From contig CAYXDV010000002.1 in assembly GCA_964463925.1 (NCBI GenBank), forward strand, positions 19-64,018: DNA of 64,000 nucleotides. Direction: 5' to 3'. The notes under the pieces are model-generated. The model made no database searches and was not told where the DNA came from. It saw only the letters and a list, made by a program, of their open reading frames with translations. Source of the stretch: an uncultured Gammaproteobacteria bacterium. Its GTDB lineage: Bacteria; Patescibacteriota; Microgenomatia; UBA12405. Below are positions 3,579 to 60,366 of the stretch, one piece after another (within the stretch, counting starts at the first letter, position 1; every line of letters begins with the position of its first letter). The translations under genes were made by a program, and so were the position numbers.

Positions 3579-3697
3579 AACTGACAATAACACGCAAGCC
3601 TATTGGTGTAAACTAAAAACCATGGCAGCAGGATGTTAGTCGCCTGTTAAAAGTCCACGGAATAAGATTCATAGTCGCTGATAAATCAAATGGTAGT

Positions 3698-27629: not shown

Positions 27630-28049
27630 ATGCTTGCTGCCTTTTCTCTCTGGTTAAAAAATAAACCGTATACCACCCATACACAGAGAAATTACCTAGT
27701 AGATATCCGTAAATTTTTAACTTGGACCCAATCTCAACCAAGCTCAAAATTTAACCAAAAACTCCTAATTAGCTATTTATCCCTTATCTCTCAGGAAAAA
27801 AGCTATTCAAGACAGTTGGCATCTATAAAGCTCTTTTGCCAGTTTGCCAAAGACCAGAACTTGACTGCTTCTGATATATTTGCCTCTAGCCTTAAAGCTA
27901 TTACTCATCTCGGTAATTCAGAAATTATCAATCAGCAAAACCTACTTGCGGAATATGCTCATTGGTTAAAACTCCAAAAAGTCTCCAAGTCCACTCTTCG
28001 AAACTATCTTAGCGACCTTAATGATTATCTAAACTGGCTCCATGCTTAA
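27630..28049 (+). CDS. stand-alone tyrosine-recombinase N-terminal SAM-like (core-binding) domain repeats, no catalytic domain
   Basis: Two repeats resembling XerD/phage-integrase N-terminal domains (AFSLWLKNK...TQRNYLVDIRKFLTW and LLAEYAHWLKLQKVSKSTLRNYLSDLNDYLNWL). The stop overlaps the ATG of the giant gene (ATGCTTAA), +1 frame. Confidence 0.45.
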   Translation: MLAAFSLWLKNKPYTTHTQRNYLVDIRKFLTWTQSQPSSKFNQKLLISYLSLISQEKSYSRQLASIKLFCQFAKDQNLTASDIFASSLKAITHLGNSEIINQQNLLAEYAHWLKLQKVSKSTLRNYLSDLNDYLNWLHA

Positions 28050-34000: not shown

Positions 34001-34542
34001 AGATCCAAATATCACAAAACTATATCAAATCATCTACAAACAGCCTTGCCATCCAACCACAAAAGACAGGCATAGTGACCATTCTTGGCGATCTGTTGAC
34101 TCTTGCAGACAATGGATCTGTCACTATTAATGGTGATTTAACAGTATCAGGCACCATTGCTAGTAGTGGTGTTTTAACTAGCAACTTAATAGCAACAGAT
34201 GCCAGCATTAGCGGAACGCTAACCTCTGGCAAATTGAATATTGCTACTGATAGTGCCACTCTGATTATCGCTCAGGATAATAACCTCAACCAAACAGCCG
34301 GCTCTTCTGCTCAAATTATCAGTAATGCCAGTGCAGGCCTGGCAACTCTACCGGCAGGCAGTACTGAACTCATTGTTCAATCAAATCAGCTGCATTCCAA
34401 TTCTATGGTCTATTTAACTCCAAATTCTTCCACCCAAAATCAAGTTGTCTATGTCAAGTCTAAAGATGACAAAAGCTTTACGATCGGTATCGATACCCCG
34501 CTACCCACTTCCATTCCTATCAACTGGTGGATAATTAATTAG
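28042..34542 (+). CDS. giant membrane-anchored surface protein (2166 aa) with tail-fibre-like GIGTTxP repeats
   Basis: Uninterrupted 6.5-kb ORF. The N-terminal ~40 aa carry a third SAM-like repeat (AYLNKLKSSGTSQSTLARKQASLNTFNRF), followed by a TM helix (ILIPVTLFLLIGALTYGFF). At least eight copies of (V/I)GIGTT(S/N/T/V/I)P...L(D/E/Q/S)V, as in phage tail-fibre proteins. Gly/Thr/Asn-rich, beta-rich. Confidence 0.9.
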   Translation: MLNLGQISSHQKQEAYLNKLKSSGTSQSTLARKQASLNTFNRFAAIKFPKSTTSKIVSTTSKSIKLAPSFNPLKILIPVTLFLLIGALTYGFFRQTIQQAVQSFAYPNTPTRPTRRLSFQGRLTDTTGTPITSPSNVKFGLWNAGTGGTELYNTGTGGTVVPDQNGIFSVLIGDQVGTEIPANIFTENQNIYLEITMNPSSSAETMTPRQQIASVGYALNSETLQGYPPLGVGQSNVVLVLDNTGVLNLGYTSPTFKSTAGTFGLEGQAMTLKATDTSNGSLNLNPDGTGNVNMIFEGTSAVGATGFLSLTNANLSGGALIYSNINNTNRGYDFINFQNYNPATTTLASRFRVDAYGNASIGGTMSAVNIAVSGNSNIGGTLNLTNTPQGVGTTVLYLSNTGVVTQGTLPATSSGIASGYNGLSIGGTAIGLGGTLNQNTNIGTSNFYLRFTGQTNQEALYINNAGDLGVGTTNAYANAQLSLEGGYLGLENGDFGGSRGIRFRNSADTGTASISGGGIYQASNDVLYLQDGATNITILRNSIGGEKLRITNSGIGITGGGIIYPSSDSTNGLSIANSSGTKFVGFDTTNQRVGIGTTIPNDTFSVNNQFTINSSGVAKAANGSTTTPSYSYLNDTSSGLYLNTTSDIRVSIGTTSVAQFTPLGMTIGKSLGYDTGATLRLSNSSSGGRNSLVLLNANTGVGSSSSALTWKNASNTTLWEMANDNGANGGQNFYLYDGLAGQYRWHVNSSGNMGIGTVNQTGKLSVVGSQGDTRSVSIDNREIKFRGDGVAHMSIFGPDTSKSYLTIQNTSSSSAVGTTGADLLTVLSSGSVGIGTTSPRGILQVGQDIGGTGPILTFLSAGTTGKFGVGTTNPVDTLEVVGNAVANTFVDRQNISYLLDPAQTSNTASSLSLTSTGSVRFNSTYNTGWKSIDTGNDTLIKLEAQSNSATNRGLILGIATTGAGGTMTPGLWDSQSLYLKNNGYIGIGTTNPSYRLEVAGSVRIGGTLFDTTSQAGTAGQVLMSTGTGVSWGSGSTPTNGLQYIGNSIGLGGTLVQNTTIGTSSFYLNFLGLGNTQSLYLASSGYIGIGTTTANAKLSLGNNVATGFLDTYGEYQILLFDAGGAGGSYGLGVKGSTLVMNSGAGAYSFDRAGNATTLYMDTSGNVGIGTTSPSGRLDVVNGTTNYLGTNQFADGIAELGSRGTGNRYSYIDFHGDDTYTDFGLRIIRNNTGANADSQISHRGTGQLAIRTEEAGSNIGLWTAAGERVRITDTGNVGIGTTVPRNGLELAKLDSNYITSLRIGGITGGNTGVGLSTETSRHQILFSSWRDTQTDTVGAKIAAINLNNWSAGNAAVQKTDLAFFTLGTTPTSTDNTTEKMRLTSNGYLGVGTTNPYAGLDVKGGAFFDGNLFNYNTNGVNGISDEASLVPNTGFEIVDPNNSNLAIGWTALMVGSSGLQTVTRETGSTMVTQGNAAVKITRGGTSGQGYILLSSCIPISQNRNYILSWIDIGTTSDNNGMYGAYEGYTTLSDCASRNIGAGTSGNSVQTYYGATAEGTLTKNTFKPHYTTPFNAGTGYKWARFGFRSNTFAVSGGTAYFDAFKAWTDDNYSSNTQGGVDLAENYPVNPDQNIEPGDLVALSPTLSTEAGINVLEKSTTPNQSTLFGVVSTKPGLVLDDSIPYTRAAIALAGRVPIKISPNSAPILAGDYITSSSYAGFGQKSLSAGKVIGQALESWTPESGKSTITILINNTYYTPQIFLTNSGHIQTNFVTDSKALASLGLESSQDAIVHANYDLVDQLGNTLNRTEQFSNILSAKIMTGLLEANNIVTNITTSKTTITKDLYTETISPLGNNTQIKINSDLNVAGNLLATDIATTKLIASEASISGTLYADRIVSKEGNFNDLLTSRVVALRTELQTFISSNTAPAMPPSTIASQIPLWSFDVGTSATEIKGDLKLSDNLIVAAKLQVQGQAQLASALVAHDLTIDQIQISQNYIKSSTNSLAIQPQKTGIVTILGDLLTLADNGSVTINGDLTVSGTIASSGVLTSNLIATDASISGTLTSGKLNIATDSATLIIAQDNNLNQTAGSSAQIISNASAGLATLPAGSTELIVQSNQLHSNSMVYLTPNSSTQNQVVYVKSKDDKSFTIGIDTPLPTSIPINWWIIN

Positions 34543-36352
34543 CTGTATACTTTTCTTTCCATTCTAAAAAATCATCTATTTTAAGCAGATTTATTACGTA
34601 CAATTGTTTCCAGTATGTAAAATCATTCAGATCTACAGCCATGTCTTTATTTAAATCAGCATCTGAATAATAAAATTTAGATACTCCCGGACTAGTATCA
34701 ACAATAGGCTCAACAAAAACCCCATCAAGTCTATATTCAGTTGACTTTTCCAAATAAAACTCTATTCGTAATTTCACTGTCAATGGGTTGACTTTAGTAT
34801 CTTGAGTTATCTCTTTATATTCTGGAGAGCTAAAAAAGGTGGTCTCAGAAGAATCTAGTACATTGCCTTTATCTCCAAACTGCCACATTTTTATCGTCAG
34901 CTGACCATTACTCAAACTACTTACTATGCCCCCAAATTTCAAAATAGTATATTTTCCAGGTATGATTTCTACATCTTGATAAATACTTTGTCTAGGCCTA
35001 CATTCACCGCCACAGTTTGTTGCCAAAAAACATCTTGCATCATAAGATTCCTCTGGCTTTCTTAAAACTAAATAGTTAGTTGTGCTGCCAACCGGTTGCA
35101 TTCGATCCCAGCCAGAAAAATCACATCTATCAAAATCACCATTAGTTAATAGGTTTTTTTTAAAAACAAGCTCGTAAATATATATACCAGTGTAGCCGCC
35201 CATTTCCTCCCAATTTGGATCTCTAGAAACATGCATATAATATTTTCCAGTCTTGTCATCCTGAAATATAGATGCATATTGTAAATCACAAGCCGGAGTT
35301 TCCCCTTTCTTATCCATTCTTTTTGAAGAGTATAAAATTGGATTTCCAGCAGGCAGCTGTTCCAAATTCCTCAACCATATATCAGAACTTCTAACAACTC
35401 CATAATCCCAATTCTGGTCCTTCATACACAACAAACTAGTATCCATCGATTCAGTAATCAAATAATATTCATCACCTTCTTTCCAGCTTCTAGCAAAACC
35501 AAAACCTTTGTTCTCGCCCTGCCAAAGCTCCCTCCATATTCTGGAATCTCTCTTGGATAATACAGAATCATCACCTGTTTCATAATCCACAAAATTTTTT
35601 GTTCTAGCTGTCCCACGAAAACCAGCAAGCCCATCAAAACCATGAAAACTAATGTAATAATAGCCATCTATTTTGTCATAAATATCAAAGGTACCTTCGT
35701 CAGCAACCTTACCAATTCCTCCAGATTCTTGAACACACACATCAGCATTTGAATTACATATTTTCCTCCACAATTCACCACCAACAATTACCGGAGCAGT
35801 TTTAAGTTCAAAATCACCATAAGGGTCAATATTATTTCTAGTTGCCAAACACCCGTTCCAATGCCCGTCAGATCCTAAGCATTGAAACAAATATAGCCAT
35901 TGGTTTTTGTCCCTGTCAAAGTACATACTTCCATCAGTACCGCTGCACTCCCAAGGACTTCCAGCCACAGCCTTTGGGACAATCACTTGGGGCCAGGACC
36001 AAGTTTTACCCTGGTCATATGATCTCCTTATTGTAGAACCAGATGCACCTTGACCATTGGTAATGTCCAAACATTTCTTCGAGGTTTTATTTTCCCAATC
36101 ATATTCTCTAGCCACCATATACCACACCCCATTCTTAACAAAAATCTGAGTTCCTGCTTGATATCCATATATATTTATAAATTTATCAACATTTTCTTGC
36201 CATTGACTAGAATCTTTGATTAGTAATGAATTATTTAGTTTCCATTCGGCTTTCCCTTCCCAATAATCTTTCAAAATCGGTTCACTGGCTATTGCGCAGT
36301 TTGCCACAGACATACCCCACAACATAAAAAAACATAATATATATTTTTTCAT
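34535..36352 (-). CDS. secreted BNR/Asp-box repeat (sialidase-superfamily beta-propeller) protein with C-terminal dockerin-like module
   Basis: Signal peptide. Asp-box SYDQGKTWS (SxDxGxTW). C-terminal DLNKDMAVDLNDFTYWKQLY...DDFLEWKEKY. Confidence 0.7.
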   Translation of the reverse strand: MKKYILCFFMLWGMSVANCAIASEPILKDYWEGKAEWKLNNSLLIKDSSQWQENVDKFINIYGYQAGTQIFVKNGVWYMVAREYDWENKTSKKCLDITNGQGASGSTIRRSYDQGKTWSWPQVIVPKAVAGSPWECSGTDGSMYFDRDKNQWLYLFQCLGSDGHWNGCLATRNNIDPYGDFELKTAPVIVGGELWRKICNSNADVCVQESGGIGKVADEGTFDIYDKIDGYYYISFHGFDGLAGFRGTARTKNFVDYETGDDSVLSKRDSRIWRELWQGENKGFGFARSWKEGDEYYLITESMDTSLLCMKDQNWDYGVVRSSDIWLRNLEQLPAGNPILYSSKRMDKKGETPACDLQYASIFQDDKTGKYYMHVSRDPNWEEMGGYTGIYIYELVFKKNLLTNGDFDRCDFSGWDRMQPVGSTTNYLVLRKPEESYDARCFLATNCGGECRPRQSIYQDVEIIPGKYTILKFGGIVSSLSNGQLTIKMWQFGDKGNVLDSSETTFFSSPEYKEITQDTKVNPLTVKLRIEFYLEKSTEYRLDGVFVEPIVDTSPGVSKFYYSDADLNKDMAVDLNDFTYWKQLYVINLLKIDDFLEWKEKYTAN

Positions 36353-38352: not shown

Positions 38353-39462
38353 CTATAGTTTTGGCAGAACCGCCATTGGATCCATTCTCTTATTGTCTTT
38401 AAAAACTTCAAAATGTAAATGGGTACCAGTCGAACGTCCAGTTGAACCCATAGTTCCAATTTGTTGGTGTTGATGTACCACATCTCCAGCTTTCACCAAA
38501 AGTGAATTGTTCAACATGTGCCCATACAAGGTTTTATAGCCATTCCCGTGGTCAATAACTACATAGTTACCATATCCACCACCATTCCAGCCAGCCTTTA
38601 CTACAGTTCCACCTTGTGCAGCCCAAATAGGTGGGTTTGATCTATTGGCCAAATCTACCCCAGTATGAAACCAACCATATCTCTGAGTAATAATCCCATA
38701 GCTCGCCCATATAAAGTTGCCTTCTCCTTTTATTCCAGGTACTGGTGGAACTTCAGTTGCTATATTCTTAGGACGATCAGTCACCACGCTATTTGGTTTT
38801 ATACCATCAGGAACAAATAAGTCTTGCCCAGGATTCAAAGCGAAAGTTTCATCATTTGCAAAAGTATTGAATGGATAATCCACGATCGATTGTGGATCAA
38901 CTTGAAAATCTTTTGCAATCGAATAAATTGTTTCACCACGATTCACTGCATGTCTTACTCCAGATGCTGGCAAAATCCTAATTATCTGTCTTGGTTTAAT
39001 GCTATCAACTGTTTTTAAATTATTTTCCCATAAAATAGTATCGATACTTACTCCAAAGGTTTTTGCAATACTAGCCACAGTATCAGTTTCGGTTACTCGA
39101 TATTCCACTATTTCACCTTTGTTTCCTTCAGATACCTGAGTGTCAGCCACATAACTAGTATCATTTGCCAAAACAAACTGTGGATCATAAGTTCTTCTCT
39201 GGCCTCCTTTATTTAAAATCAAATTTTCAACCGAAGACGAAAAGATAATAACCAAAATCGTAAAGGTTGCCATACCTCCATGCAAAAACCATCCAGAAAA
39301 TCTACCCTGCTGACGATACATCAAACTGGTAATAATTTTTTTTATGAATGTACTCCAGCCAAGCAGCTGAGTTAATATTTCTGACCAAAAAATCATTTGC
39401 TCTTGCCAAAACAAGCCCCAATATTCCCACTCTCTACTTAACCAATTTAAAATTCTTTGCAT
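38353..39462 (-). CDS. LysM-domain M23-family peptidoglycan metalloendopeptidase
   Basis: Two LysM repeats (DTVASIAKTFGVSIDTILWENNL and ETIYSIAKDFQVDPQSIVDYP). M23 catalytic core HTGVDLA...GYGNYVVIDHGNGYKTLYGHM...GSTGRSTGTHLHFEV. Confidence 0.9.
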   Translation of the reverse strand: MQRILNWLSREWEYWGLFWQEQMIFWSEILTQLLGWSTFIKKIITSLMYRQQGRFSGWFLHGGMATFTILVIIFSSSVENLILNKGGQRRTYDPQFVLANDTSYVADTQVSEGNKGEIVEYRVTETDTVASIAKTFGVSIDTILWENNLKTVDSIKPRQIIRILPASGVRHAVNRGETIYSIAKDFQVDPQSIVDYPFNTFANDETFALNPGQDLFVPDGIKPNSVVTDRPKNIATEVPPVPGIKGEGNFIWASYGIITQRYGWFHTGVDLANRSNPPIWAAQGGTVVKAGWNGGGYGNYVVIDHGNGYKTLYGHMLNNSLLVKAGDVVHQHQQIGTMGSTGRSTGTHLHFEVFKDNKRMDPMAVLPKL

Positions 39463-40755
39463 CTATTTTTTGCCAAATTTGGCTAGGAACTCAGTGTTGT
39501 TTTTAGTCTTTTTCATTTGCTCAAGTATCATTTCTGTAATCTGTAATTTATCCATCAGTGCATCCATTGCCCTCCTCATTTGAGCAATTTTGTTATACAC
39601 TTCTGGAGCCATTAACAAGTCATCTCTCCTGGTTCCAGATGCCAAAACATTTACTGCAGGGTAAATCTTTCTTATTTCTGCCAATTCTCTTTCCAGCCTA
39701 ATTTCCATATTTCCGGTACCCTTAAATTCTTCAAAAATCAGCTCATCCATTTTTGAACCAGTATCTACCAATGCTGTTCCGATAATCGTCAATGATCCAC
39801 CATTTTCAATCTTTCTAGCAGCTCCAAAAAAACGTTTACTTGGATACAAAGCCGCAGGATCAAAACCGCCAGACAAGGTTCTTCCAGAAGTTGGCATCGC
39901 CAAATTATATGCTCTTGCCAATCTAGTGATCGAATCAAAAATTATAAAAACATCCTCACCCATTTCTACCAATCTTTTTGCTCTTTCCAAAGCAATCTCG
40001 GCAGCTTTAGTTTGTTCTTCTGGTTTTTGATCAAAAGAACTAGCAATCACCTCTCCTTTAATAAATCTTTGCATATCAGTTACCTCTTCTGGACGCTCAC
40101 CAACCAACACTGCCATCAAATGCACTTTTGGGTGATTTATGGCCACTCCAGCAGCTATCTCCTTTAAGAGGGTGGTTTTTCCAGCCTTTGGGGGAGACAC
40201 CACCATACCTCTCTGTCCAAATCCAATCGGAGCAAATAAATCTAAAACTCTTGTTGATAAAATCAAGGGGTCGGTCTCCAAAACAACCTGTTTTTGGGCA
40301 TAAATAGGAGTTAACTCTGAAAAGTTTGGTCTTCTCTTTGCCAAGGCAGGGTCAAATCCATTTATCGTTTCTATTTTTAACAACGCAGGATGTTTTTCGT
40401 TTTCGCGTCTAGAACGCATTAAGCCAACCACCATATCTCCAGGTCTAACCCCCCATTGACGAATTATCTGCGAAGCAATATAAGCATCCCCTGTTGCTGG
40501 AATAAATTTAGGTCTTAAAAATCCACCACCATCATTCATCACATCCACAACTCCAGAAATCCTGATTAACATTTCGGGTGTAGGTGCTTTTAAAACAGGG
40601 ACTGTTTGTCCCACAATAGGCGCCGGCACAACCGCAGGTTGAGCTGGTAATGCTATTGGTTTTACAGACACAGCAGGCTGTGGCGTAAACGAAACTTTAT
40701 TTTTTACAGATTCTAACTCTACTTCTGTTATAGGAGGTTTTTTGCGCGTTGGCAT
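39463..40755 (-). CDS. rho: transcription termination factor Rho (with divergent Pro/Val-rich N-terminal region)
   Basis: Walker A GFGQRGMVVSPPKAGKTTLL. Rho Q/R-loop region ...FIIFDSITRLARAYN.... 430 aa. Confidence 0.9.
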   Translation of the reverse strand: MPTRKKPPITEVELESVKNKVSFTPQPAVSVKPIALPAQPAVVPAPIVGQTVPVLKAPTPEMLIRISGVVDVMNDGGGFLRPKFIPATGDAYIASQIIRQWGVRPGDMVVGLMRSRRENEKHPALLKIETINGFDPALAKRRPNFSELTPIYAQKQVVLETDPLILSTRVLDLFAPIGFGQRGMVVSPPKAGKTTLLKEIAAGVAINHPKVHLMAVLVGERPEEVTDMQRFIKGEVIASSFDQKPEEQTKAAEIALERAKRLVEMGEDVFIIFDSITRLARAYNLAMPTSGRTLSGGFDPAALYPSKRFFGAARKIENGGSLTIIGTALVDTGSKMDELIFEEFKGTGNMEIRLERELAEIRKIYPAVNVLASGTRRDDLLMAPEVYNKIAQMRRAMDALMDKLQITEMILEQMKKTKNNTEFLAKFGKK

Positions 40756-40838
40756 GGGGAATACAAAGGGAAAAATCAGTTAACTATTGATTTTAATAAC
40801 TAACTTCGTCAAAGTCAAGATAAGGCAATTTTAATCGA

Positions 40839-43800
40839 TTATGGAGGAGCAATTGTCGAGCTAATCGTTTCAGGTGCCAAATAAGCTGTCTTCCAAACTA
40901 AAAAGTCGCCAAATGTCATTTGTCCTAAGTTATATCTATCTTTCCAAATCATAAAATCGCTAATATCGACTTTAGCATCATTATTGTAATCACCCAAAAG
41001 TGTACTACTACAACTGACACCATCTGTAGCACAGCTATTTGCACCGGAACCAGTGACCGTTCTACATGAATTGTTTACACAAGTCCTGTGGCAACACCTC
41101 CAATCAGTACCCAAGCCCCCATCGTTTTTACAGCCAGGTCCAGCACAAGCGCAGGCCACCGGAGTACCAGGGCAAGAATAAGTTGAATCACCAGCTCTAC
41201 TCAAATGTAGCTTTTGTACACAGCTTTCCATATTCTCAATTGGCCAACCACCTGCATAAGTATTAAATTGTAGGTCATTTACTACTTTGCCAGTTGCAGC
41301 ATCTGTCCCGCCTATGTCTCCGGCTTTTACTATCCAACTAAAAGTTTTTCTAGCTGTCGAAATTGTACTTACAGTCGCATTGTTTTGATAAGAAGGTTGT
41401 CCAGCAGTGGCTCCAATATGAACATTATCTCCAACCAATATCGCTGGACGTGCATTTCCGTTACTATCAGTATTTCCTATGTTATACATAGCCAAGGTGT
41501 TCCAATTACCAGTAGGATTATCAATAGTTGCTGTAACAGTTACGGTGTTCCCAACACTGGACATGTCTAAACTGCCAGAAGAAATACCAGAGCTAACACA
41601 ACGAACAGCTTCTGCCGTACACATTACCTGCGGACCAAATCTGTAAATCGAATGTCTAGGCCATTTTTCAAAAGGTTCAGCGACATAATAAGGCCAAACC
41701 CCAATATCATAAGATACCCCAGGAGTAAGATTTAGAGTAGTAGATCCCACTCCAGTTTTTTGATCACTAATCACAATCCATCTATCTTTGGGGTCATAGT
41801 TAGGATCAGTAGTAGTTGGTGTGTAATTTACATTTGTACTTCTATCATTAACCATAACCACATAGGCCAAAGGTGAAGTTCCAGCGTTGGCCGGTCTATT
41901 CCATGTCAAGATTTTACTGGAACAAGAATATCCATTGCCAACAGAAACAGTTGGGGCATTTAGATTTGGACCATACATATAACTAACGTCTTGCTCTACT
42001 CCACCAACATTCTTCACTACCCTCTTTTGTCCATTACAAGTATGTCCGGAATACATAGACCAATTACGATCTATATAACCATCCTTACAAATTCTAACTG
42101 CATTGTCAGCATCACTCCAGTCACACACAGCACCAACAGAACAGGGTTGAGATGTGGTAACTCTACTTAAATGTAATCTCTGTACACAGCTTTCCATATT
42201 CTCAATTGGCCAACCACCTGCATAAGTATTAAATTGTAGGTCATTTACTACTTTGCCAGTTGCAGCATCGATTCCAGAAATATCACCAGCTCTTACTGCC
42301 CAGGTAAAGGTCTTGTTAGGTCCAGAAGTACTTACCGCCGCATTGTCTTGATAAGATGGTTGTCCAGCAGTGGCTCCAATATGAACATTACCTCCTGTTA
42401 TTATTGCTGGTTTGGCATTGCCACCAGCATCAGTGTTCCCGATGTTATACATAGCTAACGAATTCCAATTACCAGTAGCATTGGCCATAGTAGCTATAAC
42501 TGTCACCGTATTTCCCAGGTTCGACATATCCAAACTGCCAGAAGAAATACTAGAGCTGACACAACGAACAGGAATTCTTGTTGGTGATGGACTGGTTGGT
42601 GAAGTACACATGATTTGTGGACCAATTATGCCAACTCCATGTCTAGACCATTGAGCATAATCTTCAGCTTTGTAATAAGGTTGTACTGCAATATCAATAG
42701 AATCATCTGCCACAAGACTTAGTGATTTACTAAGATTAATAGCTGATTGCTGATCATTAACCACAATCCATTGATCATTTGGATCTTTACCGGTTCCGGT
42801 ACCAGGCAAATAGGAATCATTCAACTTGTGATCATTAACCATAATCACATAGTTAATTAAATTAGAACCAGCATTAGTTGGTCTATTCCAGGTTAAAGTT
42901 GTATTACTACAACTGTATGTAATTGATGTAGGAGCTAGAAGAGCAGTAGAAGGTATGTTTGTTGGTGATGGATTGGTTCTACTCAAATGTAACTTTTGTA
43001 CACAGCTTTCCATATTCTCAATTGGCCAACCACCAGCATAAGTATGAAACTGTAAATCATTTACTACTTTGCCAGTTGCAGCATCAATTCCAGAAATATC
43101 ACCGGCTTTTACTGCCCAGGTAAAGGTCTTTCTAGTTGCCGAGACTGTATTTACAATCGCATTATCTTGATAAGAAGCAGTTGTACCACTATTGCCAATT
43201 TTTACATTACCTACAGCTGGCAACAAGGCATCTTTAGGATTGTTTGCACTATAGAGATTCTCTAGATTATACATAGCCAGTGAATTCCAATTACCAGTAG
43301 GATTATCAATAGTTGCCGTAACGGTTACGGTGTTGCCAACATTGGACATATCCAAACTGCCAGAAGAAATACTAGAGCTGACACAACGAACAGGAATCTT
43401 TGTCGGTGGTGGATTAGTTGGTGCAGCACACATGACTTGTGGACCAATTCGGTAAATCGAATGTCTAGACCATTTTCCATATGGCTCATTAAGATAATAA
43501 GGCCAAACCCCAATATCATAAGATACCCCAGGTGTAAGGTTTAAGGCCGCATATCCCAACGCAACCTGATGGTCAGTCACCACAATCCACTTGTCTTTAG
43601 GATCATAATTGGAAGCTGTAGAAGTGGGCACATAATCAGCATTTATACTCCTGTCATTAACCATTACCACATAAGCCATTGGAGCACCTAAAGAAGCATT
43701 GCTAGGCCTCACCCAAGTTAACCCTCCGCTAGAACAGCTATAACCACTATTATCTCCATATGCAGTTGGGGCATTTAAATTTGGACCATACATATAACTA

Positions 43801-44060
43801 ACATCAACACCAGAAGCATCAATCACTCTCTTTTGTCCATTACAAGTATGTCCGGAATACATAGACCAATTACGATCTATATAACCATCCTTACAAATTC
43901 TAACTGCATTGTCAGCATCACTCCAGTCACACACAGCACCAACAGAACAATCCTGGGCAGGTATTAGACTCGTGACTGCCTCCACTTTACCAACCACCCC
44001 AAATATCATAATAAACCCAAAAATTAGTACACCAAAAAGATCCATACTTAAACATAACAA
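40839..44060 (-). CDS. secreted 1073-aa repeat protein (three ~270-aa tandem modules + Cys-rich knot + C-terminal dockerin-like module)
   Basis: Signal/TM. The module VRCVSSSISSGSLDMSNVGNTVTVTATIDNPTGNW...IENMESCVQKLHLSR occurs three times. The shared CSVGAVCDWSDADNAVRICKDGYIDRNWSMY module occurs twice. C-terminus CKNDGGLGTDWRCCHRTCVNNSC...DYNNDAKVDISDFMIWKDRY...FLVWKTAY. Confidence 0.85.
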   Translation of the reverse strand: MLCLSMDLFGVLIFGFIMIFGVVGKVEAVTSLIPAQDCSVGAVCDWSDADNAVRICKDGYIDRNWSMYSGHTCNGQKRVIDASGVDVSYMYGPNLNAPTAYGDNSGYSCSSGGLTWVRPSNASLGAPMAYVVMVNDRSINADYVPTSTASNYDPKDKWIVVTDHQVALGYAALNLTPGVSYDIGVWPYYLNEPYGKWSRHSIYRIGPQVMCAAPTNPPPTKIPVRCVSSSISSGSLDMSNVGNTVTVTATIDNPTGNWNSLAMYNLENLYSANNPKDALLPAVGNVKIGNSGTTASYQDNAIVNTVSATRKTFTWAVKAGDISGIDAATGKVVNDLQFHTYAGGWPIENMESCVQKLHLSRTNPSPTNIPSTALLAPTSITYSCSNTTLTWNRPTNAGSNLINYVIMVNDHKLNDSYLPGTGTGKDPNDQWIVVNDQQSAINLSKSLSLVADDSIDIAVQPYYKAEDYAQWSRHGVGIIGPQIMCTSPTSPSPTRIPVRCVSSSISSGSLDMSNLGNTVTVIATMANATGNWNSLAMYNIGNTDAGGNAKPAIITGGNVHIGATAGQPSYQDNAAVSTSGPNKTFTWAVRAGDISGIDAATGKVVNDLQFNTYAGGWPIENMESCVQRLHLSRVTTSQPCSVGAVCDWSDADNAVRICKDGYIDRNWSMYSGHTCNGQKRVVKNVGGVEQDVSYMYGPNLNAPTVSVGNGYSCSSKILTWNRPANAGTSPLAYVVMVNDRSTNVNYTPTTTDPNYDPKDRWIVISDQKTGVGSTTLNLTPGVSYDIGVWPYYVAEPFEKWPRHSIYRFGPQVMCTAEAVRCVSSGISSGSLDMSSVGNTVTVTATIDNPTGNWNTLAMYNIGNTDSNGNARPAILVGDNVHIGATAGQPSYQNNATVSTISTARKTFSWIVKAGDIGGTDAATGKVVNDLQFNTYAGGWPIENMESCVQKLHLSRAGDSTYSCPGTPVACACAGPGCKNDGGLGTDWRCCHRTCVNNSCRTVTGSGANSCATDGVSCSSTLLGDYNNDAKVDISDFMIWKDRYNLGQMTFGDFLVWKTAYLAPETISSTIAPP

Positions 44061-44081
44061 TTATCTATTTCAAATGCAATA

Positions 44082-46481
44082 TTATTCCTCAATAATCCAG
44101 TTTTTAATCTTTGCAGCTAATGCGTTTTCTCCAAAATCAGCTAGTCCAGCTGCACCCCACATCTGAAAACAAGAAGACTGTGGGTCACAAGGAAAATTTA
44201 GAATAGTAAACCAAAAAACTTTCTCAGCACCTGATTTCAATTGATCATCTATCCACCAATCAAAATTATTAACAACGTTTCCAACTGAATTTCCTCCAGC
44301 TGGGATATTGGCAGATCTCTTAAAATATTGATCTATGTTTGTCTCAGTTACCCAAACAGGTATTTCCCCCCACCCCAAACTCTGTAAATATCTATGTGTC
44401 CTTGCCACCTCTTCTCCAGGCGGAATTATCGAATATGTATGTATATTCATCACATCAAAAGGTATTCCAACATTCCTCTTCTTTATTTCAGAAAGCATAG
44501 AGTTACCAATCAAGGCCGGTTCCCCAGGTTCTGCTATCTGCCAAGCACCAAAAGCATTTACTACTACTTTTGCTTCAGGATCTATTTTTTTTATTTCTCT
44601 ATAAGTCGCAATCAGCAAATCTGCATAACTTTGTTCTTTTGTCTTTCCTGGTTCAGGCACAAAAAAAGCGCTATCCACGTCTGCTTCATTCCAAATCTCC
44701 CAATTTTTTACTTTATTTTTATATCTAGTAACTACAGCATCCACATATCCAAGCCAGTCAGTTAAATTTTGAGCTGGATATTTTTCCCTTTCTGCAGGAA
44801 TAGAAACTGAACTTGGAGCTGAGCTAGCCCAAGCTGGAGATGTACCCAATATCACTGATAAGTTATCTTCAGTTTGATATAGATTCATCACATAATCAGA
44901 CGCAGCCCAATTCCATTGTCCCTTGTTTGTTTCTAACGCACGCCATGGAAGATCTTCTCTGGCCAATTTCAACCCCATACCTTTAAAAACCCCATATTGT
45001 TTCTCTACATTTTGTAATGCATCTTGGGGTGTTTTACCTCCTGCTCCTGTAGCCCAAACATAATAATTAAACAAATAATTACCCATCCCAAACTGACTTT
45101 TCCTTAATCCTCCTTTGGCCACATAAACATCCTTCCACTTTAGGAAATCACTTATTGCTAATTGATTTAGTACATATTTTTGCTTCCAATAAACAAAGTC
45201 ATTCAAGTCAATAAAGTTATCATGATTCACATCAGCAGGAGAATACACAGTCCCACACTTACTACCTTCTCCGTCACATTTATTATCACCACTGCCAGCA
45301 ACCGTACTGCAGGCATTATTCACGCATTCCCGATGACAACACCTAAAATCAGTGTTTGACCCTGCCTCGTTCTTGCAGGCACCACCTATACAAGAACAAA
45401 CACCAAAGGATCCTGTACATGCAAAGCTGGTATCTATCAAATGCATACCTTGCAGTTGCCAGTATCCCCAATTATCGCTTGCCGATAGTTCATAAGGAGC
45501 CCCAAAGCCAGCATAAATGTCGCTTATCCCGTAAATCTTTCCTTCTCTGTCACTCAATAGCCCAACATTGTGGGCAAAATCTGGAAAGTTATTTTCAGCC
45601 TCAATCATTCTTATTTCACTCCAGTTAACTCCATCTTGAGATGTTCTATACCCCAAAGCACTATTAGATGTATGCGAATTTTGTATTTGCATCATCACAA
45701 ATTGTTTATTCACCTCATCATATTTTATATCGGGTGAATGACCACGTACGTTGCTCAAATTCGTTTCTTTGGAAATAAAGTTTATTCCATCATCTGACGT
45801 AGCCATAAAAAGACCAGGGATCGATCGATATGCAGTATCATCCATATACCACATATAAGCTTTATTATCCCTCCAAACAACCGATTGTTGTCCGGCTCCA
45901 TACGGCGCATCCAATGTTGTTATATTTTTTGCTTTCACTATTTTCTTTGGAAATTGTGGGTTGTTTTGCCAAGTATTGTCTTCCGCTAAGGTTAAGTATG
46001 GGCCTTCTATATCTTGAGATCTGGCTACCGAAATATAGCTCGAAAACAAACTTGTGGCCAAATCAATTTCCAAGGCATTCGAATAATACAAATAGTAATA
46101 GCCATCTTTATAAGTCAAACTTGGATCACAAGCTGCCAGATTTTCATATTTACCAACTGAATTTTTTGTTTGTCGTGAAAATAAAACCACTTTTGGCTGG
46201 CTCCAAGTTTTTAGATCAGTACTTTTTACCAATCTAACAACATCCCATCCATCAGCCTCATCTATATTAATAGGTCTGCTGCAAAAAAAAGCATAGTAGG
46301 ATCCATTATCTTTTATCAAAGATGGAGCATAGGCGTAATTGTAACCACCCTTTTGGGGTAATGCTATTGGATTAGAAAAGTCAATTCTGTAGTCCTCGGC
46401 TTTTACCCAAGCTGGTTTTACACCAAAGATAAAGGCTATCAACCCTGCTATTGCCAATAATAAAGTTTTTTTAAATATCAT
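44082..46481 (-). CDS. secreted two-catalytic-domain protein: N-terminal GH43-like beta-propeller, internal Cys-rich knot + dockerin-like module, C-terminal GH5/GH39-like (clan GH-A) domain
   Basis: Signal peptide. ACDPSLTYKDGYYYLYYS, a GH43-type DPS...GxYYLYY motif. CKNEAGSNTDFRCCHRECVNNAC...DVNHDNFIDLNDFVYWKQKY...FLKWKDVY. NWEIWNEAD, a clan-A acid/base EIWNE motif, and VWVTETN, a nucleophile-like motif. Confidence 0.75.
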   Translation of the reverse strand: MIFKKTLLLAIAGLIAFIFGVKPAWVKAEDYRIDFSNPIALPQKGGYNYAYAPSLIKDNGSYYAFFCSRPINIDEADGWDVVRLVKSTDLKTWSQPKVVLFSRQTKNSVGKYENLAACDPSLTYKDGYYYLYYSNALEIDLATSLFSSYISVARSQDIEGPYLTLAEDNTWQNNPQFPKKIVKAKNITTLDAPYGAGQQSVVWRDNKAYMWYMDDTAYRSIPGLFMATSDDGINFISKETNLSNVRGHSPDIKYDEVNKQFVMMQIQNSHTSNSALGYRTSQDGVNWSEIRMIEAENNFPDFAHNVGLLSDREGKIYGISDIYAGFGAPYELSASDNWGYWQLQGMHLIDTSFACTGSFGVCSCIGGACKNEAGSNTDFRCCHRECVNNACSTVAGSGDNKCDGEGSKCGTVYSPADVNHDNFIDLNDFVYWKQKYVLNQLAISDFLKWKDVYVAKGGLRKSQFGMGNYLFNYYVWATGAGGKTPQDALQNVEKQYGVFKGMGLKLAREDLPWRALETNKGQWNWAASDYVMNLYQTEDNLSVILGTSPAWASSAPSSVSIPAEREKYPAQNLTDWLGYVDAVVTRYKNKVKNWEIWNEADVDSAFFVPEPGKTKEQSYADLLIATYREIKKIDPEAKVVVNAFGAWQIAEPGEPALIGNSMLSEIKKRNVGIPFDVMNIHTYSIIPPGEEVARTHRYLQSLGWGEIPVWVTETNIDQYFKRSANIPAGGNSVGNVVNNFDWWIDDQLKSGAEKVFWFTILNFPCDPQSSCFQMWGAAGLADFGENALAAKIKNWIIEE

Positions 46482-47649
46482 AGCTACCCTTCCAATCTAA
46501 AAATTTTGAAAGATTAGATGTTCCAGAGATATATCCTTGTTTCCAGAATAAGAAATCATTTAAATCAACTTTTCCATCTTTGTTCAAATCGGCATTATAA
46601 GAATCACATCCAAAAGTAACTGGATAATCAGTTTTCAATTCACCGCTCTTATACATTTCCTGCAAATGTAAACTTACATTTTTTACCCTAGACATAAATT
46701 CAGGATTTCTAATCATTGGCACTTCACCCAGATTAGCCGTAATTTCACCTGTCCCAGGCCATTCATAAAAATACCACCACATCAAACCAAAATTATCACT
46801 GTATTCTCTGGTAATGTTTATCTGTTCCATTAGTTGGTCTTCGCTGGGCCAGTAGATATTGTCTCTATTGCAATTAACAGTACCGCTAAGCAAACCACAA
46901 TTCCACATGCCCATACCTTGAATTATTCTATACAGATTCTTTGGCCTAGACATTTGGTTGGGAACATCTGCCACTCTATTCATTAATAGTTGAAGTAAGT
47001 TTCTAAGTTCACCTAGATTACGCATATAAGCAGGCGAGCCATCCTGCTTTTTTACAGTAGAATCATTTGGATTCCAATAAGGAAACCAGACTAAACCGGT
47101 CATGTCTGCATAATTGGTGTATAGCAAAGCTCTATCATCACCTGTGTTTACCATGTGTACCATTGTCGGATGAGCTGAGTCTATTTGTCTAATAAAATCA
47201 ATAATCGGCTTAAAATTCTTACGAACCACACCATCCATCGGCACGTTTATTTCTGGTTCATCAAAATACATATATCCATACAAACCTTCATTATTTTTTA
47301 TTCCATTCAACCAAGTTCTGAGTTGGTCTTGCATATTTACACTGCTGGCAAAATCTCCTCCTCCAACAAATCCAGTCATATTCAAAATAACTTTTACCCT
47401 TGCTGCCTTGGCTGCATTTAAGGCCTCCAGCGTAGACGACAAACTCCCATACCTACCCATTAAAATATTTGCCCCAGCATCATCTCTAATCTTTGTAGCA
47501 TAATCAGCCGTACCCCCAAAATTATGCCACACGGCAACTGGATATTCTTTTGTGCAAGTATCTTGCGATGCCAAAATTTTTATTGGATTAAACAGCTCCA
47601 AGATTAACAGTCCAAAAACAAACCAACAGTAAATGCTGAATTTAAACAT
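46471..47649 (-). CDS. secreted hydrolase-like protein with C-terminal dockerin-like module (paralog of 47642..48781)
   Basis: Signal peptide. YMYFDEPE segment, possibly a TIM-barrel glycosidase acid/base. C-terminus DLNKDGKVDLNDFLFWKQGY...FLDWKGSY. Confidence 0.7.
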   Translation of the reverse strand: MFKFSIYCWFVFGLLILELFNPIKILASQDTCTKEYPVAVWHNFGGTADYATKIRDDAGANILMGRYGSLSSTLEALNAAKAARVKVILNMTGFVGGGDFASSVNMQDQLRTWLNGIKNNEGLYGYMYFDEPEINVPMDGVVRKNFKPIIDFIRQIDSAHPTMVHMVNTGDDRALLYTNYADMTGLVWFPYWNPNDSTVKKQDGSPAYMRNLGELRNLLQLLMNRVADVPNQMSRPKNLYRIIQGMGMWNCGLLSGTVNCNRDNIYWPSEDQLMEQINITREYSDNFGLMWWYFYEWPGTGEITANLGEVPMIRNPEFMSRVKNVSLHLQEMYKSGELKTDYPVTFGCDSYNADLNKDGKVDLNDFLFWKQGYISGTSNLSKFLDWKGSYDI

Positions 47650-48781
47650 AACTTGCCCTCCAACTCAAAAAAGTATTTATATTAGTCTTGCCACCCACAT
47701 ATTCATTCTTCCAGAATAAAAAATCATTTAAATCAACTTTTCCGTCTTTGTTTAAATCGGCACCAATAGCAGACAATCCACCACCACAGCCAACTCTAAC
47801 TGGGTAATTTGTATTGATCTCTCCATCTTTATACATTTTCTGAACTTCTTGGTTCACGTATTTAACATCATTCATAAGACGAGGACTATTAACCATCCCT
47901 ATTTCCCAAGCACTAGTATCTGTTATCGAAGTTGGCCAACTGTACATATACCACCAAACTGCTCCAAATTTATTTGTAATCTTTTTCATAGTATCTATTT
48001 GCCTTCTCACTTCATCATAACTTAAAAAATAAGGATCTTCTCCTTCACGATTACCATAATAGGGTCTCATACCATCAGCCTGAGCGATAAAATAGTAATT
48101 TTTACTAAGAGCTGGATTCGCTTGTTCACTTCTTTGAACCATTCTTGTCCAAGCATTAACAACATCCTCATATTTCCAGGCATATCTATTGGAGTCAGAA
48201 TAATCCTTTGGGTTCATAACTCCATAAGACACTGCCCCTGTCATATCAGCATATCCAAAAAAGGGAGTAGAATTGTCAGGATCTACACCCATATTCATAG
48301 CCCCTCCCCCCGAGGTATGTGCTAATACAGGATGTTCAGGATCTTCTTCTCTAATCAAATCTAACATTATTCTAAAATTATCCTTCAACCAATACATGCC
48401 ATTGCTCTGAACTCTCAACTCTGGTTCGTCCGCATACACATAGCCATACAGCCCAGGATGGTTTTTAATCTGCCTAATTTTCTGCCGCAAACTATTTTGT
48501 AAATTTATATCTGTCGAAAAATCCTTCATTGTGGCATATGTCTCCATAAACACCAACAATTGCACCCCATTAATTTGAGCCGCATCTAAACTGCTTTTTA
48601 ATGAATCATAACCAATATCAGTCATTACCACATTTATCCCGGTTCTGCCATAAACTTGACTAGCATATTCACCGGCTCCTCCAAAGTTGTTCCAACCAAA
48701 AATAGGAAACTCTAAATGGCAACTATCCACAGCCAACACTCCTCTAATTGATAAAAGTATCCAAGACAAGAACCAAAGCAT
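47642..48781 (-). CDS. secreted hydrolase-like protein with C-terminal dockerin-like module (paralog of 46471..47649)
   Basis: Signal peptide. YVYADEPE. C-terminus DLNKDGKVDLNDFLFWKNEY...FLSWRASY. It overlaps its paralog by 8 nt, which suggests an operon. Confidence 0.7.
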   Translation of the reverse strand: MLWFLSWILLSIRGVLAVDSCHLEFPIFGWNNFGGAGEYASQVYGRTGINVVMTDIGYDSLKSSLDAAQINGVQLLVFMETYATMKDFSTDINLQNSLRQKIRQIKNHPGLYGYVYADEPELRVQSNGMYWLKDNFRIMLDLIREEDPEHPVLAHTSGGGAMNMGVDPDNSTPFFGYADMTGAVSYGVMNPKDYSDSNRYAWKYEDVVNAWTRMVQRSEQANPALSKNYYFIAQADGMRPYYGNREGEDPYFLSYDEVRRQIDTMKKITNKFGAVWWYMYSWPTSITDTSAWEIGMVNSPRLMNDVKYVNQEVQKMYKDGEINTNYPVRVGCGGGLSAIGADLNKDGKVDLNDFLFWKNEYVGGKTNINTFLSWRASYV

Positions 48782-57568: not shown

Positions 57569-58612
57569 TTATTCCAATAATCTGGCTAATTTATCTCCGA
57601 ACTTACCTTCATACCCCAATGCCCACCAAGCCACACCTCCATAACCATATTTTTCTACCCGACCTATCTTTGCCATCAAGCTTCGTTCGTTTTCAAAATA
57701 GATTTGCCTAATTTGCGATCCCAATTTATAAACTAACCAAGGAGTATCTGTAACCTCATCGTAATTTACTTTGATTTTCCAGTTGTTTTTTAAAAAGTCT
57801 TCCATTCTACCCAGGCTGGCCAACATCCTCACACTTCGGGGATGGAGTATTGAACCAAAATCAGTGGTTTTAGTTCTCCATTCATACCCATACAAAGGCA
57901 GGGCTACCACCAAACGTCCTTTATCTACTGGCAACTGATTTACTCTTTCAAATATATTTTCCAAATCTACCCCAGCCTTGCCAGCCAATGGAGCCACTGG
58001 TCCAGCTAATCCAGAATCATAAAAATCATAGGCCATAAAGACTACCCTATCTGTTTTTTCAAATAATTTTTTTAGTTTGCCGGCATCACCTTTGTATAAG
58101 GTGTTTCCAAAAACATCAACCGACAACTCCCCGCCTATCCGCGATCTTAAAACTGATAAAAAGCTAAAATAACTCTCATCGAGTATGGCTGTGGGGCTCT
58201 TTTGATATTCAAAATCAATATTAAACATATCTGCTCCAATTTTCTTCTCCAGTTCACTAGCCTGTCTAAAAAATACTTCCCAATAATCTTTATTAGTTAA
58301 AAACTTATCTAAATCCTTGTCTTTTAACATACTAAAAACCACACCAACTTTCCCACCTTTATTCCTAACTATCTCACTTTGTTTTTTAAAGGATTCTGAA
58401 AAAATTCTACGACTAGCAAAGTCCCACTGTAAGTTGCCATCGCCTTTTACTGGCACCGAAAAAAAGAAAAGTTTGTCCACCAAATCTACTCTAGGATTAT
58501 CAGCTAATCTCCAGTTAGGCAAAAATCCCCACTGTTCTGTCTTGGCAAATATTTCTCCACATGCAGTCGTCAAAAACAAAAATACAAAAAACAATGTTAC
58601 TTTCCAACTCAT
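57569..58612 (-). CDS. secreted glycoside hydrolase family 18-like protein (chitinase/peptidoglycan-hydrolase-like TIM barrel)
   Basis: Signal peptide. GADMFNIDFEY resembles the GH18 DxxDxDxE catalytic motif. The C-terminal YGYEW...GGVAWWALGYE resembles the GH18 end. It lies between tRNA-Ile and tRNA-Ala. Confidence 0.65.
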   Translation of the reverse strand: MSWKVTLFFVFLFLTTACGEIFAKTEQWGFLPNWRLADNPRVDLVDKLFFFSVPVKGDGNLQWDFASRRIFSESFKKQSEIVRNKGGKVGVVFSMLKDKDLDKFLTNKDYWEVFFRQASELEKKIGADMFNIDFEYQKSPTAILDESYFSFLSVLRSRIGGELSVDVFGNTLYKGDAGKLKKLFEKTDRVVFMAYDFYDSGLAGPVAPLAGKAGVDLENIFERVNQLPVDKGRLVVALPLYGYEWRTKTTDFGSILHPRSVRMLASLGRMEDFLKNNWKIKVNYDEVTDTPWLVYKLGSQIRQIYFENERSLMAKIGRVEKYGYGGVAWWALGYEGKFGDKLARLLE

Positions 58613-58773: not shown

Positions 58774-60366
58774 TTAATACTTCTGTGCTTGCCGTTCACT
58801 AAGGGTCAATTTCAACAAATTCAAATCCTGAGCGTTAACAGTACAATTAAAGTCCATATCATAACTTCCCAAATTACTACTACCAAGATTCTTTATCAAT
58901 TCAGCATAGTCCAATCCATTAACCACATCATCACTGTTTGTATCACCTGGCGATAGTGGGTACTTTGAAAAATCAAAAGTTGCTCCAGGAATAATTCTCA
59001 GTTTTCCTTGAAGAGCATTGTAGTACTGACTCTGACCATCTTCACCAAATTTAGTAGTAACTTCCAAGGGACCTCTGACCAAAATAGAAGCGTTATCAAG
59101 TGGGTTTGGCAACCCCTCAGTACTTACAGAAGCTGTATAAACTGCATTAAACAAATCGCATTTATTTTCTGCGTTATTCCAAACACGACAATAATTTCCA
59201 GATTTAATAATTGGTACTTTTTTGTATTCTTTCTCAACTCCAGCTCCTTTAATAATTACATCAACCGTCTGCGGCTTCGCACAGATAGTGGTGGCATAAT
59301 CCATCAAACCAGAAAAACTAAGTTTAAACTGCATATTCCCAGCTGATCCCCCAGTAACTGGTATCGCAACATCTGGAGATATCGACAAAGTAGTATTTTG
59401 CAAACTTGCAGTTGCAGATGCATCAAAAGATGTACCTTTCCAAGCAGTAAATTCGTAATTACCAACAGACATAACTGTAGTATTTTGACTTGAGTCAGTG
59501 TTGGTAAGCTTAATGGTGGCAAGTTCAACATCACCACTAGGTAAAGAAGAGTTGGGAGAAGTTGAGTCTACTCGACGCAAACCATAAATTGAAACAGATC
59601 TATCACTATTCTTTGTAAAACTAGGACTAAATAGCGCAGAATTTACGCTAGAATTACCCATTGAGGATGCAAAAATCCAACCTCCAGCGGCAGGCAGATT
59701 CAAATCTAAAGCATAAGAATCAAATCTCGCATCTTGAGGCACTTTTGCAAAAAGCTTAAAAGATACTTCACTACCTACCTGGGAAACAGGTCCCGCAAAA
59801 AGTCCAAACGTAAAATCCTTAGCACTAGCTGGAGGGGTTGTATTTTTTTTTTGATCGACAAATGTAACTCCGACTAAATTAGTGGAAATTGGCGAAGCCA
59901 CATTAAACTGCGTCAGCATCGTCTCTGTTCCGAAATTTAAATTAGAAGGCAACTGAAGTGGCTTCACTACAACATCAGCAACATGAACTACTCCAGTAGG
60001 AAAATCAGGTGGATCTTTTACTAAATTCAGTCTAGCCACGCCATCGCCAATAGTATTTCTAACTTGTGTTTGAAAAGCAGCAGTTTTTGTAATGCTAACG
60101 ATCCGCAATTTAGATGGATCAAAAGTAAACCTGATGTCCGCACTGTTCATTGGAACATTCAAACTATCTACCATCAATTGCAGAGAAATTTGCTGTCCTA
60201 CTTGTCCCTCGATCTCACCCAATTTATTTCCTGAAGAATCAACAAAATAAACAGAAGCACTACTAGCATCAGCCGACCTTCGCAAATCAGCATTTTTACC
60301 AAGCAACAAGACTGCAGCCGCCAAACCCAAAGCCAACAAACATACAACAACTATCTTTTTGCCCAT
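58774..60366 (-). CDS. membrane/signal-anchored cohesin-domain protein with C-terminal canonical tandem dockerin (scaffoldin/adaptor-like)
   Basis: N-terminal hydrophobic anchor. The cohesin-like segment VGQQISLQLMVDSLNVPMNSADIRFTFDPSKLRIVSI parallels type-I cohesin GDTVRIPV...CDFVYSYDPNVLEI. C-terminus GDTNSDDVVNGLDYAELIKNL...DMDFNCTVNAQDLNLLKLTL, two dockerin Ca-loop/helix repeats. Confidence 0.6.
   Translation of the reverse strand: MGKKIVVVCLLALGLAAAVLLLGKNADLRRSADASSASVYFVDSSGNKLGEIEGQVGQQISLQLMVDSLNVPMNSADIRFTFDPSKLRIVSITKTAAFQTQVRNTIGDGVARLNLVKDPPDFPTGVVHVADVVVKPLQLPSNLNFGTETMLTQFNVASPISTNLVGVTFVDQKKNTTPPASAKDFTFGLFAGPVSQVGSEVSFKLFAKVPQDARFDSYALDLNLPAAGGWIFASSMGNSSVNSALFSPSFTKNSDRSVSIYGLRRVDSTSPNSSLPSGDVELATIKLTNTDSSQNTTVMSVGNYEFTAWKGTSFDASATASLQNTTLSISPDVAIPVTGGSAGNMQFKLSFSGLMDYATTICAKPQTVDVIIKGAGVEKEYKKVPIIKSGNYCRVWNNAENKCDLFNAVYTASVSTEGLPNPLDNASILVRGPLEVTTKFGEDGQSQYYNALQGKLRIIPGATFDFSKYPLSPGDTNSDDVVNGLDYAELIKNLGSSNLGSYDMDFNCTVNAQDLNLLKLTLSERQAQKY

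Follow-up and report, generated by a model that had tools for sequence, protein, structure and literature searches.

Old module duplications and short-tract gene conversion probably shaped a repeat protein with a dockerin-like tail in an uncultured bacterium

We analysed a 64,000-nucleotide (nt) stretch of contig CAYXDV010000002.1 from an uncultured bacterium (the window), in which an open reading frame (ORF) on the reverse strand, at 40839..44060, encodes a large protein built of internal repeats and ending in a dockerin-like tail (the target gene and target protein). The explanation that best accounts for our observations, and that we consider probable, is that this is a secreted, non-catalytic, multi-module accessory protein, the modules of which arose by old duplications and have since exchanged short tracts by gene conversion, with no sign of programmed variation. 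The exact repeat blocks in the gene break short-read assemblies, and one public contig carries a shortened form of the gene that may be either a product of recombination or an artefact.

Exact repeat blocks on a diverged background

The longest exact direct repeat in the target gene measures 122 nt, compared with a mean of 11.8 nt and a maximum of 15 nt in 200 codon shuffles; the repeats are far beyond chance. A preliminary description of this DNA had reported near-identical blocks within the gene, and these were borne out: the 89-nt sequence that it quoted is present in two exact copies, at 41215-41303 and 42181-42269, and in a third copy with 5 mismatches at 42997-43085, giving spacings of 966 and 816 nt. 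The 20-nt sequence GTGGCTCCAATATGAACATT was found exactly at 41407 and 42370 (two occurrences only). The 122-nt block, which is the longest, belongs to module A and recurs with a period of 1806 nt, had been overlooked. A repeat finder returned families of three copies spaced 963-966 and 816-822 nt apart, and families of two copies spaced 1806-1815 nt apart. Tandem Repeats Finder gave no report for the gene, because the repeat period exceeds 500, the longest that it handles.

Self-alignment of the protein yields the order signal peptide, A-B-C, B-C, A-B-C, Cys-rich module and dockerin-like tail (Table 1), with a short Pro/Thr linker between C1 and B2. Three copies of the VRCVSS...HLSR module noted previously are indeed present in the protein, and the proposed tandem triplication holds in that the gene is repetitive, but not as three equal units, since module A has only two copies. 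The three copies of module C, which are not adjacent to each other, share 75-82% of their amino acids (aa), the upper value being reached by C2 and C3 only, and 79-81% of their nucleotides, so that near-identity at the DNA level is a property of patches and not of the full module. Module B is more variable, its three copies sharing 48-68% aa identity, with B2 matching B1 and B3 at only ~50% of aa and ~60% of nt positions; whole cassettes are ~64-75% identical.

At synonymous sites, the C copies differ by a proportion (pS) of 0.40-0.46 and the B copies by ~0.6, and this divergence of 0.4-0.6 shows that the module duplications are old. The framework parts of C evolve under strong purifying selection, with a ratio of non-synonymous to synonymous change (dN/dS) of 0.07-0.12, and its central loop region (columns 42-88) is relaxed (dN/dS 0.32-0.66), positive selection not being seen. 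Protein similarity among the copies is mostly held by purifying selection.

Superimposed on this background is a mosaic. Along the 411-nt alignment of C, the nearest pair is, in succession, C1=C2, C1~C3, C2~C3, C1~C2 and C2=C3, such that the closest pair switches at least four times. The 109 informative sites divide 42/34/33 among the three possible groupings and are spatially clustered, with 43 state changes against 72 expected, a value as low as this being reached in 0 of 100,000 shuffles (p<1e-5). Run tests on synonymous codons were significant for the pairs A1/A3 (p=0.014), B1/B3 (p=0.007) and C2/C3 (p=0.0003). Because the informative sites split almost evenly and cluster in this way, the alignment indicates that gene conversion has probably acted repeatedly within the gene, over short tracts. 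The mosaic is at odds with one recent duplication and with a wholesale recent homogenisation; of the recent homogenisation of three modules suggested earlier, exchange in patches stands, whereas homogenisation overall does not, given a synonymous divergence of 0.3-0.55 outside the identical tracts. Since no 18-mer or longer sequence is common to the target gene and the rest of the window, a paralogue with the same modules included, exchange appears to be confined to the target gene.

We propose that the internal repeats stem from old intragenic duplications that later exchanged short tracts by intragenic gene conversion, and that conversion has left a mosaic with exact blocks of 33-122 nt. Blocks of this length are long enough for homologous recombination, which would then lead to in-register loss or gain of a cassette.

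Public assemblies and a one-unit form of the gene

The preliminary description had also warned that the repeats are an assembly hazard, and two public data sets confirm this. Exact Rho and GH43 (glycoside hydrolase, GH, family 43) proteins lie on two Logan contigs of SRR12404947, which align to the window at 100% identity over 7,778 and 8,562 nt and stop at window positions 41240 and 43920, in both cases 30 nt inside one of the exact blocks, where a graph with k=31 is expected to break. Because the contigs break 30 nt inside the blocks, both contexts of each block exist in the SRR12404947 read set.

In the second data set, the Joint Genome Institute (JGI) contig Ga0490050_013650 (L001; 3,190 bp; sample 3300045347) encodes a protein of 472 aa (P0003), a clean A-B-C-tail of one unit. 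The contig equals window positions 44100..43437, 42627..42181 and 41303..39210 in collinear pieces with zero mismatches, which corresponds to deletions of 822 and 966 nt, both in-register and in-frame. Junction 1, at the 822-nt deletion, falls within 13 identical nt close to where B1 and B2 end (AATTGGTCCACAA; Table 1), and junction 2, at the 966-nt deletion, lies inside the 89-nt block common to C2 and C3; shared blocks of 122, 39 and 53 nt are traversed without jumping. The last 87 nt of the contig (3104-3190) have no match in the window, from which the contig diverges at 39210. This foreign end truncates a conserved M23/LysM peptidase gene after 84 shared residues (leaving a 95-aa ORF), although both the window and the Logan contig have this gene intact, and carries the 3' end of a convergent ORF; a search with the 87 nt gave no match. 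Locus searches with P0003 in metagenome and genome contig sets returned nothing, and further alleles were not found.

In favour of an artefact, chimeras formed by the polymerase chain reaction (PCR) in library preparation arise at homologous positions, and for the SPAdes scaffolder an overlap of about 10 nt can be enough to close a gap. The one-unit allele arose either by recombination or as an artefact, in library preparation or in assembly, and we lean slightly towards the artefact. Recombination-driven length variation, as suggested previously, is plausible, with this contig as one candidate allele, but unproven.

If the locus were naturally length-variable through recombination at the blocks, which we regard as a genuine but minority possibility, the 472-aa JGI allele would be a real deletion product, and the protein would act like a 'periscope' protein, with its reach or valency tuned by repeat number. 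The perfect identity of the contig in three collinear pieces, separated by two in-register, in-frame deletions, is consistent with this, as are the position of junction 2 inside an 89-nt exact block and the clean product. Additionally, a 13-nt junction together with passage through the 122-, 39- and 53-nt blocks is unlike k-mer graph collapse, and since such collapse would not give this pattern, reads containing the junction probably existed. Arguing against natural length variation, the allele comes from one short contig (3.19 kb) in one sample without any further allele, and the contig shows zero single-nucleotide polymorphisms yet three structural anomalies in 3.2 kb (the two deletions and the foreign end), which resembles chimeric molecules or joins. 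Furthermore, whole-repeat identity in the target protein is 64-82% aa, mostly under the >=80% criterion for periscope proteins (PMC8201768).

Conversely, the three-unit structure of the window, or its mosaic, might itself have been produced by the assembly, through repeats placed in the wrong order or polishing across copies. Short-read assemblies demonstrably fail at the locus, and the copy number is unverifiable without reads. We nevertheless judge this improbable: the reading frame is open across all module junctions, the flanks are reproduced in the Logan contigs, and A1, most of B1, the end of B2, all of C2, the end of C3 and the tail recur base-for-base in the independent JGI contig. Moreover, the Logan breaks imply that both contexts of each block are in the read set, and the unique segments differ too much from one another to be alleles of different strains.

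Modules, dockerin-like tail and gene neighbourhood

Two public gene calls place the start of the target gene at M6 (ATG 44045; 1068 aa), and the N-terminus of the protein is signal-peptide-like (MDLFGVLIFGFIMIFGVVGKVEA). Neither an LPXTG motif nor a C-terminal transmembrane segment is present in the protein, the C-terminus of which is the dockerin-like tail.

Pfam, NCBIfam and PDB sequence searches with the whole protein and with each module returned no significant family for A, B or C. When 1.84 billion representatives were searched exhaustively with phmmer, 14 matches were obtained in all, namely the protein's own short allele (P0003), a paralogue encoded in the window (P0002), three distant C-like modules at 25-31% identity, two of them in proteins that have DUF11 domains as well, and nine matches to the Cys-rich module plus dockerin-like tail; outside the own allele and P0002, there were zero matches for A or B. 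A protein homologue search retrieved the target protein itself, P0002, P0003 and one fragment (P0016) only, with erratic recall (the target itself was missed in two of three runs), so absence there is weak evidence. Orthologues from other species were absent from the databases searched. The paralogue is the only other protein found with A, B and C all together, and its catalytic domain shows weak arabinofuranosidase similarity.

A confident AlphaFold model of module C from a 7-row alignment (pLDDT, the predicted local distance difference test, 85.9; pTM, the predicted template modelling score, 0.82) is an all-beta sandwich that structurally matches generic beta-sandwiches, including immunoglobulin-like (Ig-like) modules of GHs; module C models as a generic Ig-like beta-sandwich. 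Comparison with carbohydrate-binding modules (CBMs) gave no Pfam or NCBIfam matches and only generic beta-sandwiches in structure, and glycan binding by the modules is putative. The Cys-rich module (~60 aa, 10 Cys) belongs to no Pfam family; it is also found inside the neighbouring GH43/GH10 protein, at 45117-45434 (-), and homologues of this module and the tail elsewhere are fused to GDSL esterases and a Pel9A-like lyase (P0004, P0006, P0008).

The protein had been described as dockerin-tagged, which is correct in so far as the tail is dockerin-like: it has one Ca-loop, and a profile of the window's eight tails ranks solved type I dockerins at the top (2y3n_B, E=7e-5; 3ul4_B, E=1.4e-4). Against Pfam Dockerin_1 (PF00404), however, the target tail scores 17.9 bits and a paralogous tail 18.7 bits, below the cut-off of 22.9, and the target tail covers the first half of the profile only. 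Its first segment contains a DxNxDxxxxxxD Ca-loop and a helix, and the second retains the FLxWKxxY helix only, so the tail lacks the two-loop duplicated segments (~22 residues each) of a type I dockerin. This one-loop module of ~40 aa is found in seven ORFs within the 64 kb of the window, with the consensus ADLNxDGKVDLNDFLxWKQxY, 8-9 residues, FLxWKxxY.

The target gene is one of a series of genes on one strand that encode dockerin-like tags, a glycoside hydrolase gene among them; the two overlapping genes at 46471-47649 and 47642-48781, upstream of the GH43/GH10 gene, probably form one operon with the target gene. A promoter-like site was observed at 49175-49148. A cohesin-bearing protein is encoded 15 kb from the target gene and is, from its predicted domains, a candidate partner or anchor of the dockerin-like tags. 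Because this protein has both a Cohesin and a Dockerin_1 domain, and its neighbour a similar N-terminal module and a dockerin-like C-terminus, the organism appears to encode both halves of a cohesin-dockerin system. The host is a deep-branching, uncultivated bacterium; its leucyl-tRNA synthetase is <=49% identical to that of any GTDB species representative, and the matches mix Firmicutes and Candidate Phyla Radiation (CPR)/Patescibacteria.

Taken with these neighbours, the most likely role of the target protein would be that of an accessory subunit in an assembly at the cell surface that degrades polysaccharides of the hemicellulose type, docked by its tail and serving in substrate binding or as a spacer. 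The idea that the protein is a scaffoldin, with the repeated modules as cohesins, gained no support from structure and profile comparisons, and in the profile comparison A, B and C were unrelated to the window's cohesin-like modules. We think it very unlikely that A, B and C represent a new, non-cohesin receptor family for the one-loop tails of at least seven proteins in the window, in which case the protein would be a three-site adaptor scaffold in a docking system not described before, with its valency altered by recombination at the blocks that conversion keeps identical, and the 472-aa allele its one-site form.

Other origins of the blocks and the question of programmed variation

The identical blocks coincide with the most conserved protein segments, as they might if they were leftovers of a very recent duplication, the other parts being fast-evolving and gene conversion absent. 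We give this scant credence, because one nearest pair would then be expected throughout, whereas three groupings are near-equally supported and spatially clustered, and because saturating synonymous sites (0.3-0.55) adjoin tracts with zero synonymous change. Least probable of all is that an embedded nucleotide element (an RNA structure, or a regulatory or recombination site) keeps the blocks identical, since, although synonymous sites are fully identical over 89 and 122 nt, folding z-scores of -1.9 to +0.8 on both strands give no clear signal, Rfam has no match in the gene, promoter-like and terminator-like matches are not enriched, and the A block and the C block are mutually unrelated; the embedded-RNA idea was dropped on the z-scores and the Rfam result.

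The antigenic or phase variation proposed in the preliminary description found no support. There are no silent cassettes, no sequence of >=18 nt is common with the rest of the window, no recombinase lies next to the gene, and a host-immunity context is absent. Substitutions between copies have an ordinary, transition-rich spectrum and are not adenine-specific. Inverted repeats and short tandem repeats were both absent from the gene region, and a Pfam scan of the window's ORFs of >=150 aa showed neither a reverse transcriptase nor an invertase. Diversity-generating retroelement and cassette-variation ideas were rejected on the substitution spectrum and the lack of a donor sequence in the window. 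We see no sign of a programmed antigenic or phase-variation mechanism.

Genomic context

Table 1 Features of the target gene, its repeat blocks and related genes in the window
Feature	Position	Strand	Remarks
Target ORF	40839..44060	-	1073 aa from TTG; probable true start ATG at 44045, giving 1068 aa
A1, small 4-Cys module and linker	43746..43955	-	aa 36-105
B1, beta-rich	43392..43745	-	aa 106-223; fold unsettled by model, pLDDT 53
C1, Ig-like beta-sandwich	42978..43391	-	aa 224-361; conserved Cys3 and Cys130 (module numbering)
B2, divergent B copy	42570..42923	-	aa 380-497
C2	42162..42569	-	aa 498-633
A3	41934..42152	-	aa 637-709
B3	41607..41933	-	aa 710-818
C3	41196..41606	-	aa 819-955
Cys-rich module	41004..41195	-	aa 956-1019; ~64 aa, 10 Cys (CxCxGxxC...DWRCCHRxCxNxxC)
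Dockerin-like tail	40881..41003	-	aa 1020-1060; Ca-loop DYNNDAKVDISD, helix FMIWKDRY, second helix FLVWKTAY without loop
122-nt exact block in A1	43828..43949	-	equals 42022-42143, period 1806; Logan contig L083 stops at 43920
122-nt exact block in A3	42022..42143	-	partner of 43828-43949
89-nt exact block, end of C3	41215..41303	-	holds JGI allele junction 2; Logan contig L082 stops at 41240
89-nt exact block, end of C2	42181..42269	-	identical to 41215-41303
53-nt exact block, B1/C1 boundary	43345..43397	-	equals 42523-42575 at B2/C2 boundary
13-nt identity AATTGGTCCACAA	43437..43449	-	equals 42615-42627; holds JGI allele junction 1 (822-nt deletion)
Paralogue P0002	4111..6717	+	GH-like catalytic domain, then C, A, B, dockerin-like tail
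Tail-bearing ORFs	4111-6717(+), 6680-8260(+), 34535-36352(-), 40839-44060(-), 44082-46481(-, internal), 46471-47649(-), 47642-48781(-)		
Upstream gene	44082..46481	-	GH43, Cys-rich module, dockerin-like module, GH10-like domain; 21 nt from target
Overlapping paralogous genes	46471-47649, 47642-48781	-	392 and 379 aa; both end in dockerin-like tail; no Pfam family
Cohesin-bearing protein	58774..60366	-	530 aa; Pfam Cohesin 25.7 bits (gathering score 24.1) and canonical two-segment Dockerin_1 35.7 bits
Adjacent protein	60370-61674	-	434 aa; N-terminal module similar to 58774-60366 protein, Cys-rich middle, single-segment dockerin-like C-terminus

Elsewhere in the window, the segment 53823-58724 (-) contains, in transcription order, tRNA-Ile, a GH18 (chitinase-family) gene at 57569-58612, tRNA-Ala, 23S and 5S. 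The 23S match extends over 3185 nt against a model of 2925 positions, which suggests insertions; a 16S rRNA gene is absent from the window. The GC skew of the + strand is between -0.12 and -0.36 (2-kb windows) nearly throughout the window, irrespective of coding strand, an unusually strong strand asymmetry overall that is interrupted at ~30-32 kb, inside a 2166-aa ORF at 28042-34542 (+). This ORF has no Pfam domain, and its only match, a weak one in NCBIfam that falls short of the cut-off (E=5e-5), is to the N-terminal part of Bdellovibrio mosaic adhesive trimer fibre proteins. RuvC is encoded at 3102-3593 (-), a ComEC-like competence protein at 18395-19252 (-) and a ComEA-like helix-hairpin-helix protein at 19302-19934 (+); because these genes are in the window, the genome has recombination and DNA-uptake functions.

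Discussion

Several points weigh against the explanation that we favour, an accessory protein of old, patchily converted modules. On the side of repeat evolution, three of the six pairwise synonymous-run tests are individually non-significant, and C1, the start of B2, A3, B3 and most of C3 are taken from the window assembly alone. Regarding the short allele, junction 1 of the JGI contig lies in an identity of 13 nt, too short for de Bruijn collapse, which weakens our lean towards an artefact. As to function, which we read from context only, A, B and C are without a Pfam, NCBIfam or PDB sequence match, the beta-sandwich matches of module C are generic, and the A-B model is unreliable (pLDDT 53).

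The locus contributes three module families that lack annotation, together with a Cys-rich module and a dockerin variant with one loop, all linked to glycoside hydrolases and a cohesin protein in a lineage that has no close relatives among sequenced organisms. It also bears on the use of metagenomic data, in that its blocks of 33-122 nt stop one public assembly, and another gives 472 instead of 1068 aa, under half of the true length. Such shortened genes would mislead domain counts or protein clustering from metagenomes, and in the 50%-identity protein library that we searched the short form stands for the target gene. If the short allele is real, it would be an environmental, non-pathogen case of recombination-driven length variation in a docked surface protein.

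Among known systems, the target protein resembles the non-catalytic dockerin components and X or CBM modules of clostridial cellulosomes in its signal peptide, tandem beta-sandwiches and C-terminal, Ca-loop dockerin-type tag, as well as in its position beside dockerin-tagged GH43 and GH10-like enzymes, with a cohesin-bearing protein in the same region. It differs from them in that its tail has one Ca-loop and not two and scores below the Pfam threshold, its modules fall in no described CBM, X or Pfam family, and its host is a deep-branching, uncultivated lineage. With periscope proteins such as SasG, Rib and Sgo_0707, in which repeats are >=80% identical and copy number varies between strains (PMC8201768), it shares tandem structured domains and highly identical DNA stretches at which intragenic recombination could take place, and a shorter allele is known as one candidate; unlike them, it consists of heterogeneous cassettes, mostly <80% identical in aa and in 2-3 copies, and has neither LPXTG nor a wall anchor, and its copy-number variation is unproven. 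Like other gene-converted repeats, including scaffoldin cohesins and bacterial adhesins, it displays mosaic identity tracts with a nearest copy that alternates along the repeat, although here conversion is patchy, in tracts of ~20-120 nt on an old, diverged background, and homogenisation is far from complete. That modules of an extracellular protein are duplicated within a gene and converted in patches is already known; what is new here is the modules themselves, which are unannotated and nearly orphan, the dockerin variant with one loop and the deep-branching host.

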